DNA of 64,000 nucleotides from Propionibacteriaceae bacterium (GCA_031272505.1 JAISTQ010000005.1:31572-95571), one strand, 5' to 3'. Counted from the stretch's first letter, positions 46,692 to 52,731 are shown. The notes: generated by a model not told the origin, from the letters alone. Translations and numbers: made by a program.

Positions 46692-47738
46692 ATGGGGAAG
46701 AACGTTTTCAAGATCGTCCTGGATCTGATCCTGCTTGTCACCGCCACCTTGCTGTACCACTCCCAAGTTTTGGGGCTGGCGTTCCATGAGATCGCCGGGC
46801 TGTGCATCGCCGGGGTGATCGTGATCCATCTCGCCTTCGGCTGGAAGAGCCTGGTGGGTACCACGAAGCGGCTGTTCGCCAAAGGAACGCCGTGGCGGAT
46901 GCGGGTGCGCTGGATCGTGGGCGCCTGCCTGCTGGTGAGCTTCGCGCTGATCGTGGTCTCCGGCCTGTTCATTTCCGAGATCGTGCTGCCCAGCTCCGGC
47001 GGCGGCCGGGGCGGCTCGTGGCGGGTCATCCACGACTTCTGCGCTGGCTTGACGATCATCTTCGCCGGCGTCCACATCGGCCTGCACTGGGATTTCGTGC
47101 GGGGTGTGGGAAGCAAGGTGTTGAAGATTCCGGCCAACATCGCCCGTCCGCTCTCCTATGGGCTGCTCGCCATCGTGTTGGCCTTCGGCGCCTTCTCGCT
47201 GGTGACCAGCAACCTCGCCAGCTTGCTGATGACCCCGTTCAACGGCACCGGCGGCGGGATGCGGATCGTTACCTCCGGTGGCCAGCCCGGCAATTTCCCC
47301 TCCGATTTCCCCACCGACGGCACCTTCCCCACCGACGGCGCCTTCCCCACGGACGGCACCATGCCGCAGCGCGGCGGTGGCCGGGGCAGCCTGCCCGAAG
47401 GCGAAGGCCCGAGCTTCAACCAAGAGGGCGAGGGGCCGACCTTCAACCAAGAGAGTGATTCCCAAGCCGGCGGGATGCAGGTGTACCCGTCAGACTTCCC
47501 CACCGACTTCCAGTCCGGCGAGGGCGGCCAGATCCGGATCGCGGGCGGCGGCGGCGGCGGCCGGTTCCGTTCCGGCGGCTCGGGCACCGGCTTCGTCGGC
47601 GCCTTGGGCGATTTCGCCACCTACACCTCGATGATGGCGTTGTTTGCCGCAGTTAGCTACCTGATCGCGCGGCGCGGCAAGGACGAAATCGTGGCCCCCG
47701 CACCGGTCCCCGAAGAGACCATCGATCCCACCGAGTGA
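46692..47738 (+). CDS. Membrane protein with DUF4405-like His-containing 4-TM N-terminal module and Gly/FPTDG-repeat C-terminal region
   Basis: N-terminus 'KIVLDLILLVTATLLYHSQVLGLAFHEIAGLCIAGVIVIHLAFGW' with several conserved His. Repeats 'FPSDFPTDGTFPTDGAFPTDG', 'EGEGPSFNQEGEGPTFNQE' and 'GGGGGG'. A C-terminal hydrophobic segment. Confidence 0.6.
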   Translation: MGKNVFKIVLDLILLVTATLLYHSQVLGLAFHEIAGLCIAGVIVIHLAFGWKSLVGTTKRLFAKGTPWRMRVRWIVGACLLVSFALIVVSGLFISEIVLPSSGGGRGGSWRVIHDFCAGLTIIFAGVHIGLHWDFVRGVGSKVLKIPANIARPLSYGLLAIVLAFGAFSLVTSNLASLLMTPFNGTGGGMRIVTSGGQPGNFPSDFPTDGTFPTDGAFPTDGTMPQRGGGRGSLPEGEGPSFNQEGEGPTFNQESDSQAGGMQVYPSDFPTDFQSGEGGQIRIAGGGGGGRFRSGGSGTGFVGALGDFATYTSMMALFAAVSYLIARRGKDEIVAPAPVPEETIDPTE

Positions 47739-47757: not shown

Positions 47758-47831
47758 CGGGGCATAGCGCAGCTTGGTAGCGCATCCGCTTTGGGAGCGG
47801 AAGGTCGCAGGTTCAAATCCTGTTGCCCCGA
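47758..47831 (+). tRNA. tRNA-Pro (anticodon UGG)
   Basis: Manual cloverleaf fold: 7-bp acceptor CGGGGCA/TGCCCCG, D-arm GCGC/GCGC, anticodon stem TCCGC/GCGGA with loop TTTGGGA (anticodon TGG), T-arm GCAGG-TTCAAAT-CCTGT. CCA not encoded. Confidence 0.85.
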
Positions 47832-47888
47832 CGAAGCCGAGCATTGGTGGTAGATTGGAGCCGTCCGTTCCCTGTAAGTGAGGCTCAC

Positions 47889-48290
47889 ATGAAAAACCTA
47901 GTCAGAATCCCTACCCTCGTCCTGCTCGCGCTGTTGGTGGTGAGCGGTTGCGCCTCGGGCTCGCCGATCGAGCAATTCGTGGCCGCCGGCCAATCGCAGG
48001 TCGATTCCGTCAAAGAGTCGTTTGGTGACACGTTCAGCTCGGTCGAGTTGTCGGCGGAAGGCGAGAACACCATCGTCTACACCTATGTCTTCGGCACTGA
48101 GCAAGACATCCCGACGATCTCGGCCGGCTTCGAGTCGACGACCAGCACCCTGCAGTCCGGCTGTGACGAGGCGGTCTTCCCGGCGATGCGGCAAGCTGGC
48201 ATCAGCGATCCGGCCGCCAAATACGTATATCTGAACCCAGACGGCACCGAAGTCTGGTCCACCTACATCTATCCCTCCGCGGAGGAGTAG
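47889..48290 (+). CDS. Lipoprotein (DUF4854-like)
   Basis: 'MKNLVRIPTLVLLALLVVSGCASG' lipobox; 133 aa; no catalytic motifs. Confidence 0.6.
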   Translation: MKNLVRIPTLVLLALLVVSGCASGSPIEQFVAAGQSQVDSVKESFGDTFSSVELSAEGENTIVYTYVFGTEQDIPTISAGFESTTSTLQSGCDEAVFPAMRQAGISDPAAKYVYLNPDGTEVWSTYIYPSAEE

Positions 48291-48405
48291 CCACAACGCC
48301 TTGGCTCGTCCCGGTCTCAGGGGAGAACCGGGGCGAGATTTGGCGCGCAATCAGGGGATTAGATGAAAGACTGTACTTACCTAATCCTCGGTTCAAGGAG
48401 AGAAC

Positions 48406-49641
48406 ATGGCTCTTATACAAGCAATTACGGATGCCGCTGGCGGCGTCTTGGCCGACAGCTGGCTCGATTTCTTCTCGATGGACGCAATGGACGACAACGT
48501 CCTGCTCACCAAAGGGACGATCTACACCGGTGGCCGCGGCTCGAACACCAAGGGCTCGGACAACATCATTTCCAACGGTTCGGGCATCGTCGTCTTTGAC
48601 GGGCAGGCTGCTGCGGTGGTCGACAACGGCGTGGTCGTCGAGTTCACCGCCGTGCCCGGCAAGTACACCTACCAGCAGTCCTCAGAGCACACCATCTTCG
48701 AAGGCGGTGGCCTGGCCAGCAACTTGGGCGAGATGTTCCGCCAGGGCATCGAGCGCTTCAAGTATGGCGGCGGCGTCTCGAAGGATCAGCGTGTCTACTA
48801 CTTCAACATCAAGGAGATCAAGGGGAACAAGTACGGCACCTCCAGCCCGATCCCGTTCCGCTTCGTCTATCCGGATCTCAACTTCGCGGTCACCGGCGGG
48901 ATCCGCTGCAACGGCGTCTTCTCCTACCGGATCACCAACCCGCTGCTCTTCTACACCTTCACCGCGGGCAACGTGAATCCGTCCTTCACCCGCGACATGA
49001 TCGACGAGCAGCTCAAGAGCGAGGTCTACACGGCGCTGCAGCCGGCGTTGGGCGAGTTCTCCGCGCGCGGCATCACCTACGACAAGATCACCACCTATGT
49101 GGACGATCTGGCCAAGCTGATGAACGATCAGCTCTCCGCCCAGTGGAAGGATCTGCGCGGCATCGAGATCGTCTCCTTCGGCGTCAATTCGGTGACGGCT
49201 CCGGAAGAGATCGTCAAGAAGATCAACGACCTCGAGTTCGCGAAGGCGATGAGCGATCCGACCGTGGCCGCGGGCCGATTGGCCGCCGCGCAGGCCGACG
49301 CGATGACGACGGCCGCCGCCAACGAGGCGGGCGCGATGACCGGCTTCCTCGGCATGGGGATGGCCGGACAGGCCGGTGGCATGAATCCCGCCCAGCTCTT
49401 CCAGATGGGCCAGGCCGCGCAGCCCGCCGCTCCGGTCGCGCCGGAAGCCGCTCCCGCCGCTCCGGTGGCTCCGGTGGCTCCCGAGGCTCCTGTTGCACCT
49501 GTCGCTCCGGAGGCCCCGGTGGCCGCTGCTCCGGCAGCGCCGCCGGCTCCGCTCTTCGCCTGGACTTGCGCCGCCTGTGGCCATGATGGCAACACCGGCA
49601 AGTTCTGCGAGGAATGCGGCGCACCCAAGCCCGCGGCGTAA
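48406..49641 (+). CDS. SPFH/Band-7 (Band_7_1, YdjI-like) protein with Ala/Pro-rich linker and C-terminal zinc ribbon
   Basis: About 300-aa SPFH-like domain, then (APVAPEA)n repeats and terminal 'CAACGHDGNTGKFCEECG'. Architecture matches B. subtilis YdjI. Confidence 0.7.
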   Translation: MALIQAITDAAGGVLADSWLDFFSMDAMDDNVLLTKGTIYTGGRGSNTKGSDNIISNGSGIVVFDGQAAAVVDNGVVVEFTAVPGKYTYQQSSEHTIFEGGGLASNLGEMFRQGIERFKYGGGVSKDQRVYYFNIKEIKGNKYGTSSPIPFRFVYPDLNFAVTGGIRCNGVFSYRITNPLLFYTFTAGNVNPSFTRDMIDEQLKSEVYTALQPALGEFSARGITYDKITTYVDDLAKLMNDQLSAQWKDLRGIEIVSFGVNSVTAPEEIVKKINDLEFAKAMSDPTVAAGRLAAAQADAMTTAAANEAGAMTGFLGMGMAGQAGGMNPAQLFQMGQAAQPAAPVAPEAAPAAPVAPVAPEAPVAPVAPEAPVAAAPAAPPAPLFAWTCAACGHDGNTGKFCEECGAPKPAA

Positions 49642-49702
49642 CGGCCCGTGCGGTCCCCGGCGCCAGCCGGGGGCTCGGCCATGGCATTGAGAGGAGGTGA
49701 GT

Positions 49703-50797
49703 ATGGCGGTATTGGAGTACAAGTGCCCAAACTGCGGCGGTGCGATCAGTTTTGACGCCACCGCGCAGCAGATGAAGTGCCCGTATTGCGAATCCACGTT
49801 TGACGTCCAGGCGCTGATCCAGCACGACAAGCTGCTCAGCCAGCCGCAGCCGGACGAATCCGTCAACTTCGGCTACGAAGAGCAGCAGTATGCGGACGGC
49901 GAGCTGGCCGGCATGGTCGTCTACTCGTGCACCTCCTGCGGCGGCGAGATCGTGGGCTCGGAGGTGATGGGCGCCACTTCCTGCCCGTTCTGCGGGAACC
50001 CAGTCGTCGTCACCTCGAAATTCTCCGGAGATCTGCGCCCCGATGCCGTCATCCCCTTCAAGCTCACCAAAGAACAGGCCTTGGCGGCGTTGAAGCAGCA
50101 CTATCTGGGCAAAAAGCTGCTGCCGAAGGTCTTCAAGGACCAGAACCACCTCGACGAGATCAAGGGTATCTACGTTCCCTACTGGCTTTTCGACGCGGAC
50201 GCGGTGGCCGATCTGGCCTATCACGCCACCACCGTGTCCACCTGGTCGGATTCGGACAACATCTACACCCGCACGTCACACTACTCGGTGCTGCGCGCCG
50301 GCGCGCTGGGCTTCAACCTGGTGCCGATGGACGGCTCCTCGCGGATGGACGACGCGATGATGGAATCCATCGAGCCCTTCGATTTCTCCCAGGCCGTCGA
50401 TTTCCAGACGGCCTACCTCGCCGGCTTTTTCGCGGATCGCTATGACGTCACCGCCGAGCAGGCGCAGACCCACGTCGCCGACCGGGTGGTGAACTCCACC
50501 GCGAGCGCTTTCCGGCGCACCGTGAGCGGCTACGCCTCCGTCACCACTGAGCGGCAGAGCATCCAACTGCAAAACGGGAAGGTCCGCTACGCGCTGCTGC
50601 CGGTGTGGGTGCTCTCCACCTCCTGGGAGGGCAACGCCTACACCTTCGCCATGAATGGGCAGACGGGCAAGTTCGTCGGCGATCTGCCCATGGACAAGGG
50701 GGCCTTCTGGCGCTGGTTCCTGGCCATCTTCGGCGGCGGCTTGGTGGGGTTCGGCGCGCTGGCCACCTTGCTGCTTTGGGGTGGGGGTGCGTTCTGA
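49703..50797 (+). CDS. Zinc-ribbon membrane protein (YdjG-like)
   Basis: Three CxxC pairs at the N-terminus ('CPNCGG...CPYCES', 'CTSCGG...CPFCGN') and a C-terminal TM helix. GAGGAGG RBS 5 nt upstream of the ATG. Confidence 0.7.
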   Translation: MAVLEYKCPNCGGAISFDATAQQMKCPYCESTFDVQALIQHDKLLSQPQPDESVNFGYEEQQYADGELAGMVVYSCTSCGGEIVGSEVMGATSCPFCGNPVVVTSKFSGDLRPDAVIPFKLTKEQALAALKQHYLGKKLLPKVFKDQNHLDEIKGIYVPYWLFDADAVADLAYHATTVSTWSDSDNIYTRTSHYSVLRAGALGFNLVPMDGSSRMDDAMMESIEPFDFSQAVDFQTAYLAGFFADRYDVTAEQAQTHVADRVVNSTASAFRRTVSGYASVTTERQSIQLQNGKVRYALLPVWVLSTSWEGNAYTFAMNGQTGKFVGDLPMDKGAFWRWFLAIFGGGLVGFGALATLLLWGGGAF

Positions 50798-51759
50798 TGG
50801 CGATGTTGCGAAAGGCGCTGGCGGCGGTGGCCGTCACCATGCTCACGCTGTTTGCGGCGGTGGCGCCCGCGGCGGCGGATACCGGGCTGGGCCGGGTGGC
50901 CGAGGGCGAGCGGCTGCCCCGCTTTGTGGACGACATGGGCCTGCTCACCGCAGACGAGGCGGCCGCGTTGACGGCGAAGCTGGACGAAATCTCGCTGCGT
51001 CACAACTTCGACGTGGTGGTGGTCGACGTCGCCGCCCTTGATGACCGCGAAGCCCGCCTCTATGCGGCCGATTTCTACGAGGAGAACTTTTACGGCCTGG
51101 ACGAGGAGCATTCCGGGGCCATCTTGCTGCTGGCGATGGAAGATCGCGATTTCGGCTTCGCCACCACCGGCACCGGCATCGCGGCCTTCACCGTTGCCGG
51201 CCAGAAATACCTGGATACCTTATTCCTGCCGCAGTTGGGCGAGGATGACTGGTATGGCGGCTTCACCGGCTATGCCGACGCGGTGGATGATTTCCTGAAT
51301 CACTACGAGGCGGGCGATCCTTACGACTACAGCAACATCCCGGACACGTCCGAAGACGACGACGACGAGGGCAGCTACTACCCCGAATACGATCCGTATC
51401 CGCAATACGATCCCGACCAGAACACCGGCAACCGGAAGAGCAACGACCACACGTCCACCATCGTGATGTTCTACGGTGGGGCCTTGGTGCTGGCGCTGAT
51501 CGCCGCGCTCAGCGTGCTGCTTTCCTGGAAGGGCAAGCTCAAATCGGTGAAAGCCCGCACCGAGGCGGACGACTACATCCGCAAGGGCAGCTTCGTGCTC
51601 ACCGCCCAGTCGGACACCTTCCTCTATTCGAACGTGGTCGCCGTGCCCCGCCCCAAGGACACCGATTCCGGCGGCGGCAGCTTCGGCTCGCACGGCTCCT
51701 TCGGCGGATTCAGCTCTTCGGGCGGTTCGAGTTTCTCCGGCCATTCGGGAAAGTTTTAG
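50797..51759 (+). CDS. TPM-domain (YgcG/YdjH-like) membrane protein with Gly/Ser-rich C-terminal tail
   Basis: Signal peptide; 'FVDDMGLLTADEAAALTAKLDEIS...VVVV' TPM motif; TM helix; C-terminal 'GGGSFGSHGSFGGFSSSGGSSFSG'. Start overlaps the previous stop (TGATG). Confidence 0.7.
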   Translation: MAMLRKALAAVAVTMLTLFAAVAPAAADTGLGRVAEGERLPRFVDDMGLLTADEAAALTAKLDEISLRHNFDVVVVDVAALDDREARLYAADFYEENFYGLDEEHSGAILLLAMEDRDFGFATTGTGIAAFTVAGQKYLDTLFLPQLGEDDWYGGFTGYADAVDDFLNHYEAGDPYDYSNIPDTSEDDDDEGSYYPEYDPYPQYDPDQNTGNRKSNDHTSTIVMFYGGALVLALIAALSVLLSWKGKLKSVKARTEADDYIRKGSFVLTAQSDTFLYSNVVAVPRPKDTDSGGGSFGSHGSFGGFSSSGGSSFSGHSGKF

Positions 51760-51829
51760 CCCAGATTCGGTGTGGGGACGTAACTGAAGCGGCACACAAC
51801 GTTATCCTTGGATGGTCGGAAGGAGTCCG

Positions 51830-52228
51830 GTGAAGACAGCAAGGCTTACCGCGCTGATTTTTGCAGCGCTTGATGTGGTGTTGGCGGTGGCGATCATCGT
51901 GCTGGTCGCCACGGGCGGGTCCAGCCCCACGAAGTACATCGCCGAGATCGAGGTGCAGGAGCAGGCGGGCTCGGTCGTCAAGACGGCGAACTACCTGCCC
52001 ATCCTGGATGAGAGCGTCGATTGGGCGGAGCTGCCCCAGGAGCAGCGGATCGAGATCGCCCGCGCGGCCTGCAAAGAGGCGCTGGCGCAGATCGCCGCCG
52101 ACGAGACGGTCGTCTACAACATCCTGGGTTTGACGTCCACCAAGAGTCCCGCCTTCCTCTATGCTCCCGAGCCGGAGAAGGTACAGATCATTGTGGACAA
52201 CGAGATGGTAGGGGAGGCTGAGCTATGA
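51830..52228 (+). CDS. Small membrane-anchored hypothetical protein
   Basis: GTG start after an AAGGAG RBS. One N-terminal TM helix. Overlaps the next gene by 4 nt. Confidence 0.5.
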
Positions 52229-52731
52229 GCAAAGCAGACAAAGCCAAATCCAAGGCCACCCCTCCTGAAGACAACGGCAGCGAGCTTTCGCCGGCCGATC
52301 TGCTCAATTTTGAGTTTGACGAGCCGGATGAGGTTGATCCAGCCGAGCTGATCGATTTCGAGGCTCCCGCCGAACCGGAGCCGGAAGTCGTCGAACCCGA
52401 ACCGGAACCCGAGCCGGAGCCGGAACCCGAGCCGGAACCCGAGCCCGAGCCCGAGCCGGAACCCGAGCCGGAGCCAGAACCCGAACCGGAGCCCGAGCCC
52501 GAGCCCGAGCCCGAGCCGGAAGTGGTCCTGGAGGAGCCGGAACCCAAGCCGGAAGCCGCGGCGGAGCCCGTCGCTCTAGCTGAACCCGCCGATGCGGCCG
52601 CTGCGGCGGAACCCGAGGGGGAGGAAGCTGCCGCGCCCGCCAAACCCAAGCCTTGGCCGCTCTACGCGCTGATCCTGGGCACCATCGCGGTAGTGGAAGC
52701 CATCGTCGTCATTGTCCTCGCCAGCGGGTAG
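52225..52731 (+). CDS. Acidic (Glu-Pro)22 dipeptide-repeat protein with C-terminal TM anchor
   Basis: 168 aa with 22 consecutive EP repeats (52393-52527) and C-terminal '[25 protein letters not shown]'. Confidence 0.6.
52393..52527 (+). repeat. (GAR-CCN)22 hexanucleotide coding repeat encoding (Glu-Pro)22
   Basis: gaaccc/gagccg units, directly visible in the sequence. Confidence 0.9.

Follow-up and report, generated by a model that had tools for sequence, protein, structure and literature searches.

What is the functional unit at a chromosomal site where six co-directional genes follow a tRNA gene, and which of its features are peculiar to it? We asked this of positions 47,758 to 52,731 in a 64,000-nucleotide stretch of DNA (hereafter the window; 64% G+C) from a Propionibacteriaceae metagenome-assembled genome (MAG), in which six open reading frames (ORFs), all on the + strand, lie downstream of tRNA-Pro (Table 1). 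A sequence-only reading had described the tRNA and the six genes, all of which we located at the same positions, and had proposed a membrane-stress cluster resembling Bacillus subtilis ydjGHI that was unusual in its gene order, its lack of pspA, its three additional members and its place beside a tRNA. Our analyses lead to a narrower unit. The three central genes (48406-51759) probably make up a YdjGHI/SamGHI-type operon in the arrangement most often found, with the order I-G-H and no linked pspA, that encodes a G/H membrane complex and an SPFH scaffold, while the three other genes and the tRNA lie outside it. Here, we call the SPFH gene I, the double-zinc-ribbon gene G, and the TPM gene H.

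Architecture of the three central proteins

Window genes were annotated from ORFs filtered by third-position G+C content (GC3) and by Pfam, and transmembrane (TM) segments of all cluster proteins were called as hydrophobic segments in a hydropathy scan. The yardstick is the published description by Ravi et al., in which the B. subtilis SPFH protein YdjI combines a Band-7 domain with a C-terminal Zn ribbon, YdjG has two Zn ribbons, a YpeB-related NTF2-like domain and a TM segment, and YdjH has a TPM domain and a low-complexity tail. Every one of these features is present in the proteins encoded at 48406-51759. On the grounds of domain content, topology and adjacency, the identification of the central genes as a YdjI/YdjG/YdjH-type (SamIGH) set thus holds.

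The SPFH protein matches Band_7_1 at 7.5e-16 and Band_7 at 5.9e-6 (Pfam) and has no hydrophobic segment in the scan. The C-terminal CxxC...CxxC ribbon that had been noticed beforehand is confirmed: it follows the pattern WTCxxCG..GKFCxECG, in which W386 and G398 never vary among 12 homologues and conservation of the four cysteines is 90% or higher. Some SPFH homologues carry two to three copies of the ribbon. The predicted structure shows the fold of the ring-forming SPFH proteins. A sequence search for relatives with solved structures returned none for either the SPFH protein or G.

G is, as previously proposed, a Zn-ribbon membrane protein, with two CxxC..CxxC ribbons and one TM segment. All eight ribbon cysteines are invariant in 31 homologues, while Pfam-type searches give zinc-ribbon matches below threshold only. 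The top structural match of the predicted G model is the C-terminal domain of YpeB. Homologues begin with MxLxEYKCPNCGG, which supports the ATG at 49703 as the correct start. Two seemingly long G homologues, P0122 (531 aa) and P0123 (485 aa), were set aside, since they contain exact internal duplications of 100-200 residues and are most likely metagenome assembly artefacts rather than fusions. A different case is a 431-aa G homologue from another Propionibacteriaceae MAG (L002 11327-12622, JAIRKB010000069.1), which has a second hydrophobic stretch after its TM segment. Past the TM segment, the sequence QGQLKTVHLQAEAKDNVRKGSFQVTHTRDHYL resembles the post-TM motif of the window TPM protein; the next gene encodes a Metallophos phosphoesterase and there is no TPM gene at that place. 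In this protein, G seems to have been fused to the C-terminal half of H, with loss of the TPM domain.

H matches TPM_phosphatase at 8.6e-22 across the full-length domain (residues 44-165; Pfam), so that a TPM protein with a glycine/serine (G/S)-rich tail is encoded here as had been read from the DNA. At least 60% of 57 homologues conserve K.V....A..Y...S..T...D.FLY, a motif located after the second TM segment of H, and the same holds for its terminal GKF.

Taken as a set, the SPFH protein, the protein with two ribbons, a YpeB-related region and a TM segment, and the TPM protein are encoded by genes that are adjacent, co-directional and conserved together. The G and H genes share 1 nt (TGATG), and this translational coupling fits a complex of fixed ratio. 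What the locus lacks is a pspA gene directly upstream, a feature that defines the Bacillus operon and not the three protein families. The genes had also been described as overlapping. This is right for G/H and for the last two genes of the cluster, which share 4 nt (ATGA); the other junctions are gaps of 52-115 nt (56, 115, 61 and 52 nt).

Table 1. Positions of the tRNA, the six genes and their features, numbered from the first nucleotide of the window (aa, amino acids; A/P, alanine/proline; EP, glutamate-proline)
Feature	Position	Strand	Remarks
tRNA-Pro(tgg)	47758-47832	+	ARAGORN; sole tRNA found in the 64-kb window; incidental neighbour of the module
DUF4854 lipoprotein, 133 aa	47889-48290	+	adjoining gene outside the conserved module
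14-bp G+C-rich hairpin 3' of lipoprotein gene	~48305-48337		
SamI/YdjI-like SPFH protein (I), 411 aa	48406-49641	+	SPFH domain, long helices, A/P-rich linker, C-terminal Zn ribbon
A/P-rich low-complexity linker of I	49363-49560	+	flexible; directly precedes Zn ribbon
C-terminal Zn ribbon of I, WTCAACGHDGNTGKFCEECGAP	49561-49629	+	C388, C391, C401, C404
G+C-rich hairpin between I and G genes	49643-49680	+	no T tract; RNAfold -29.3 kcal/mol for 49636-49705
SamG/YdjG-like protein (G), 364 aa, tail-anchored	49703-50797	+	two N-terminal Zn ribbons, alpha/beta region, C-terminal TM
Zn ribbons of G	49724-49789 and 49928-49993	+	C8/11/26/29 and C76/79/94/97
Alpha/beta region of G (PepSY/YpeB-like)	~50060-50692	+	
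C-terminal TM of G	50720-50776	+	residues 340-358, sole hydrophobic segment
SamH/YdjH-like TPM protein (H), 320 aa	50797-51759	+	signal/anchor, TPM domain, acidic linker, TM, motif and G/S tail
N-terminal signal or anchor of H	50815-50871	+	hydrophobic residues 7-25
TPM domain of H	50926-51291	+	
Second TM of H	51460-51516	+	hydrophobic residues 222-240; acidic linker precedes
Post-TM motif and G/S-rich tail of H	51517-51756	+	
Small N-terminally anchored protein, 138 aa	51812-52228	+	adjoining gene outside the conserved module
Acidic tail-anchored (EP)21 protein, 168 aa	52225-52731	+	outside the conserved module

Related loci and the place of pspA

To place the locus among its relatives, we scanned one genome per species and kept the best 80 loci by SPFH protein (44-58% identical), whose six-frame ORFs were searched with phmmer and jackhmmer. 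They come from Clostridia, Selenomonas, Megasphaera, Lysinibacillus, Streptococcus, Treponema, Olsenella, Eggerthellaceae and Propionibacteriaceae. All three genes are present at 60 of the 80 loci. At these independent loci, the linkage of SPFH, G and TPM genes goes beyond chance. The order is I-G-H at 50-53 of the 60 complete loci and G-H-I at six, and the G-H-I loci likewise have unrelated genes upstream. The SPFH gene stands alone at 13 of the 80 loci, at least two of which are clipped by contig ends. The triad is found in Bacillota, Actinomycetota, Spirochaetota and Fibrobacterota, with thousands of clusters, and identity across phyla is about 50% for the SPFH protein and about 60% for G.

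Individual loci illustrate the variety of settings. An Enterococcus gallinarum replicon (L082, RefSeq) has a trio annotated as SPFH domain-containing, hypothetical and TPM domain-containing proteins beside dnaX, with no PspA. Two further Propionibacteriaceae assemblies have a bare trio at differing chromosomal sites: one adjoins tig-clpP1P2-clpX, a block that lies 40 kb from the trio in this window, and the other is a few kb upstream of leuA. Three Lysinibacillus loci (L045, L060 and L066) have SPFH and G genes followed directly by DegV and no detectable TPM gene despite more than 8 kb of downstream sequence; they are a two-gene variant of the module. An actinobacterial variant on a high-GC human faeces contig (L091 6433-9040, MT835641.1) has an SPFH gene and then one encoding a G-like protein of 450 aa, extended at its N-terminus by a proline-rich stretch; a TPM gene was not detected there. 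On a Monoglobus pectinilyticus replicon (L083 4999-7251), an SPFH homologue of 37% identity follows a TIM44-like protein with a CxxC..CxxC ribbon of its own at the end; G and TPM genes are missing from this locus. TIM44-like proteins were considered as a recurrent SPFH partner and dropped, as none was found at the 13 SPFH-alone loci.

None of the 80 loci has a PspA gene within 10 kb, in agreement with the Enterococcus locus. The search seed was E. coli PspA (PF04012 at 9e-49, 100% identical to an E. coli record), which in the same type of search recovers the PspA proteins of Paenibacillus, Bacillus and Niallia at 5e-15 to 3e-22. A six-frame phmmer search of the 64-kb window with this seed returned nothing below E = 0.7. 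Inspection by eye of the mid-sized ORFs in the window found no PspA-like protein; these are recognizable housekeeping genes (truB, ribF, clpP1/P2, transketolase subunits, uppS and others). The statement that there is no pspA here is therefore borne out across the window. PspA loci in a plasmid collection were examined as possible PspA-linked triads and rejected, as none carries the triad: the one in Paenibacillus is a cluster of the Lia/PspC type, PspA is accompanied by DUF4178/DUF4247 in Bacillus sp. N5-665 and JAS24-2, and the Niallia PspA is solitary. A Pfam scan of neighbouring genes covered 150 ORFs, all at loci in the first half of the set (the second half was searched by jackhmmer only); no family occurred in more than four of these ORFs, and PspA_IM30 was outside the 25 commonest. 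Thus, based on the 80-locus survey, this subfamily normally has the I-G-H order and lacks a neighbouring pspA, and neither trait is the peculiarity that the sequence-only reading took it for.

If the triad does not keep pspA nearby, it may still serve a PspA encoded elsewhere. It could be the membrane receptor for a PspA/IM30 protein from another part of the genome, as in B. subtilis, where YdjI together with YdjG/H localizes PspA to the membrane and where YdjI and PspA foci require YdjG/H (PMC8581546). PspA/IM30 proteins do occur in Actinobacteria, for example on a Pseudarthrobacter plasmid, and our search of the host genome spanned 64 kb. Against this stand the lack of PspA in the window and within 10 kb at 80 subfamily loci, as well as the PspA-independent phenotypes of SamGHI. 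Baur et al. (2026 preprint), who renamed ydjGHI as samGHI, report that on loss of SamI stress signalling becomes constitutive in a way that depends on SamH and does not need PspA (bioRxiv 10.64898/2026.02.06.704340). Since pspA is unlinked at all 80 loci and the phenotypes do not need PspA, linkage to pspA is not a conserved trait and dependence on PspA is not required, so we regard the receptor role as possible and rather doubtful. A PspA-type effector, if there is any, would have to be encoded elsewhere or not be needed.

Adjoining genes, tRNA and mobility

The three remaining genes encode a lipoprotein, a small protein and an acidic protein. The lipoprotein has the lipobox LVVSGC and a DUF4854 match at 6.7e-9, and the small protein has an N-terminal anchor (TM residues 14-32), so both fit their earlier descriptions. 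The third product had been described as an (EP)22 protein; the repeat is there, and its uninterrupted run is (EP)21 (residues 57-98, encoded at 52393-52518), with 29 EP dipeptides overall. It is strongly acidic (51 D+E vs 7 K+R) and has a C-terminal anchor (TM residues 148-166).

Could these genes, previously counted as cluster members, be lineage-specific subunits or effectors within one six-gene envelope module? In favour of this are the shared direction of the genes and the short gaps between them, the translational coupling of the small and EP genes, and the lack of a terminator-like site between H and the small gene. Moreover, at about 12 of the 80 loci the triad includes or adjoins a lipoprotein gene of an unrelated kind (DUF5640, DUF5067, one with an EP linker). 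Yet no homologue of the lipoprotein, the small protein or the EP protein was found by phmmer or jackhmmer at any of the 80 loci, and the triads of both Propionibacteriaceae examined are bare. A word-indexed search with the small protein recovered only itself, and a full search of 1.84 billion proteins gave a tiny family of 45 representatives, of which the two with readable context are not near a triad. A strong hairpin also follows the lipoprotein gene. Same-strand lipoprotein genes are about 3.5 times commoner near the triad (16 of 499 nearby ORFs vs 28 of 3108 elsewhere in the flanks), a figure from a crude lipobox regular expression with unequal denominators. On balance, a functional unit of all six genes is unlikely. 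Given the absence of homologues at 80 loci and the bare triads of relatives, the three genes fall outside the conserved unit: the lipoprotein gene and the small/(EP)21 gene pair are lineage-specific neighbours and not conserved parts of the module.

A more specific version would have the PspA-free triad recruit its own effectors, namely the coupled small and (EP)21 proteins and possibly the DUF4854 lipoprotein, in a six-gene trans-envelope unit with the EP protein in the role that PspA plays in Bacillus. The shared direction of the genes, the lack of a detected terminator and the variable lipoproteins near other triads are compatible with this, with nothing positive to support it, and we consider it very improbable.

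Related loci have additional genes of their own. Ten loci have a DUF4428 Zn-ribbon protein encoded between I and G, nine have DUF6935 after H, and assorted lipoproteins recur as well; examples of such accessory genes are L074 7765-8598, L024 14730-15218, L068 11990-12343 and L016 5660-7270. DUF5640 and DUF5067 lipoproteins occur inside or beside the triad, and the DUF5067 protein of L016 carries an (EP)7 linker. The extracytoplasmic domain of the small protein, for its part, recurs as five to seven tandem copies in two large proteins of 1574 and 813 aa (P0259 and P0281).

Transcription signals set few boundaries. A scan of the cluster found no promoter-like sites, and a terminator scan found only two terminator-like sites, both intragenic and fewer than in shuffled sequences. 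The hairpin after the lipoprotein gene may separate the lipoprotein transcript, and the one between the SPFH and G genes may modulate the ratio of I to G/H. The latter hairpin is missing in the two Propionibacteriaceae relatives, in which the I-G gap is 2-6 nt.

The place of the cluster immediately 3' of tRNA-Pro had been taken as a sign of acquisition, and the cluster as a candidate phage-stress module. A horizontally acquired island at this tRNA, possibly an anti-phage or phage-stress system, could also account for the differing chromosomal sites of the triad in related Propionibacteriaceae and for the slightly lower G+C of the lipoprotein region (0.59). As the sequence-only reading itself observed, there is no integrase, and we found neither integrase nor recombinase among the cluster neighbours. 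The last 29 nt of the tRNA-Pro 3' end have no second copy in the window, even with three mismatches. Composition does not shift either, with a G+C of 0.59-0.69 in the cluster vs 0.64 in the window and a GC3 of 0.73-0.88 in the cluster genes that is similar to that of neighbours. Nor does adjacency to a tRNA recur, as tRNAs are not regular neighbours of the triad at the 60 loci checked.

For a role in defence, PADLOC gave no significant match on the cluster, with only weak matches at the level of Zn ribbons (E 0.002 or worse), and 2.9 million viral contigs yielded one partial match. Nine "phage" records matched by G are UNVERIFIED short fragments, apparently bacterial, and the matches in the plasmid collection are chromosome-like replicons. 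One record filed as "Listeria phage LM 4-11-1" (L090, OR846934.1) has dnaX, recR, tmk and holB beside SPFH-G; because it shares this context with the E. gallinarum locus L082, it is bacterial chromosomal DNA filed as phage. With no integrase, tRNA-end repeat, composition shift or PADLOC match, we reject both the island and the defence hypotheses, which now seem extremely improbable.

Upstream of the tRNA lie genes for adenosine deaminase, an AAA/TPR/LuxR regulator and a DUF4405 membrane protein, and downstream of the cluster lie rpiB (- strand), leuA and argG. In the DUF4405/cytochrome-b561-like protein (46692-47738), a long insert of low complexity contains repeats of FPTDG and EGEGP(S/T)FNQE as well as a G-rich stretch ahead of the last TM segment.

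Possible mode of action and comparison with known systems

How might the I-G-H triad work? Its most likely mode of action, as far as its relatives allow us to judge, is that of a G/H membrane sensor complex that docks an SPFH oligomer and is restrained by it. From the predicted topology, G would be anchored by its tail, leaving the ribbons and the alpha/beta region in the cytoplasm, while H would expose its TPM domain on the extracytoplasmic side and keep the post-TM motif and tail in the cytoplasm. The conserved motifs thus lie on the side of the membrane that we infer to be cytoplasmic. By homology to B. subtilis, G and H may assemble into a membrane complex through which the state of envelope or membrane is signalled (PMC8581546; bioRxiv 10.64898/2026.02.06.704340), and this complex would recruit the anchorless SPFH oligomer to the membrane. 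Candidate docking contacts are the conserved N-terminus and the Zn ribbon of the SPFH protein, the G motif FAMNGQTG before its TM segment and the post-TM motif of H. If the B. subtilis proteins are a guide, the SPFH scaffold would restrain G/H signalling, organize a fluid membrane patch, and mark or stabilize stressed fluid membrane.

Several points weigh against our interpretation of 48406-51759. Oligomerization, interactions, topology and stress response are all inferred, and the SPFH model is of moderate quality (pLDDT 65). Equivalence to B. subtilis YdjG/H/I is drawn from published architecture and Pfam family rather than from measured identity or phylogeny. The pspA search of the host genome covered 64 kb, and a distant pspA is possible. 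The 80 loci are the nearest relatives of the window SPFH protein, and their statistics describe this subfamily and not all Band_7_1 proteins. Lastly, neither a terminator nor a promoter was detected between H and the two genes downstream, so these genes may be co-transcribed with the triad.

Altogether, the order and the absent pspA are typical of the family, and the tRNA and the extra genes are incidental; the window triad is a further member of a known and poorly understood family. Work on the YdjGHI/SamGHI proteins has to date been confined to B. subtilis, and has always considered them together with PspA. Our survey shows that the SPFH/double-zinc-ribbon/TPM trio is widespread and highly conserved, that its usual order is I-G-H, and that none of the 80 loci sampled links it to pspA. 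The result agrees with the view, put forward recently, that SamGHI senses membrane stress by itself; it also suggests that Bacillus may have added the link to pspA locally. For annotation, it means that genes now called "hypothetical," "SPFH" and "TPM" can be named as one module, in which neighbours and the tRNA should not be included. The window SPFH and G proteins are recorded under the MAG locus tags LBR20_*.

The closest known system is the B. subtilis pspA-ydjGHI (pspA-samGHI) operon, compared here by architecture. It has the same three architectures, including a soluble Band-7/SPFH protein that carries both a low-complexity linker and, at the C-terminus, a Zn finger, and its genes are likewise adjacent and co-directional. 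The window differs in its order (I-G-H vs G-H-I), in having no pspA upstream and no recognizable sigma-W-type context, in its longer A/P linker, and in its actinobacterial host.

Other SPFH assemblies are more distant. The rings of HflK/C-FtsH, QmcA-YbbJ (SPFH-NfeD), flotillins, stomatin and prohibitin are membrane-anchored, whereas the window SPFH protein has no TM or hairpin anchor, has no NfeD or protease partner, and carries an additional C-terminal Zn ribbon. An SPFH-NfeD operon is likewise not what we see, with no NfeD match among the six products and an SPFH protein free of TM segments. Unlike flotillins, the B. subtilis SPFH homologue sits in fluid, detergent-soluble membrane. The likeness to E. 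coli PspA-PspBC is by analogy only, as argued by Baur et al.: a membrane sensor pair is held in check by a peripheral cytoplasmic partner. The folds are unrelated, and the window has no homologues of PspA, PspB, PspC or PspF of the phage-shock system. Finally, H shares its TPM domain, followed by a TM segment and a glycine-rich tail, with TPM proteins such as E. coli YgcG, plant TLP18.3/Psb32 and Caenorhabditis elegans MOLO-1, a group whose biochemical role is disputed in the literature (phosphatase vs assembly factor). Unlike these, the window TPM gene is translationally coupled to G and linked to an SPFH gene.

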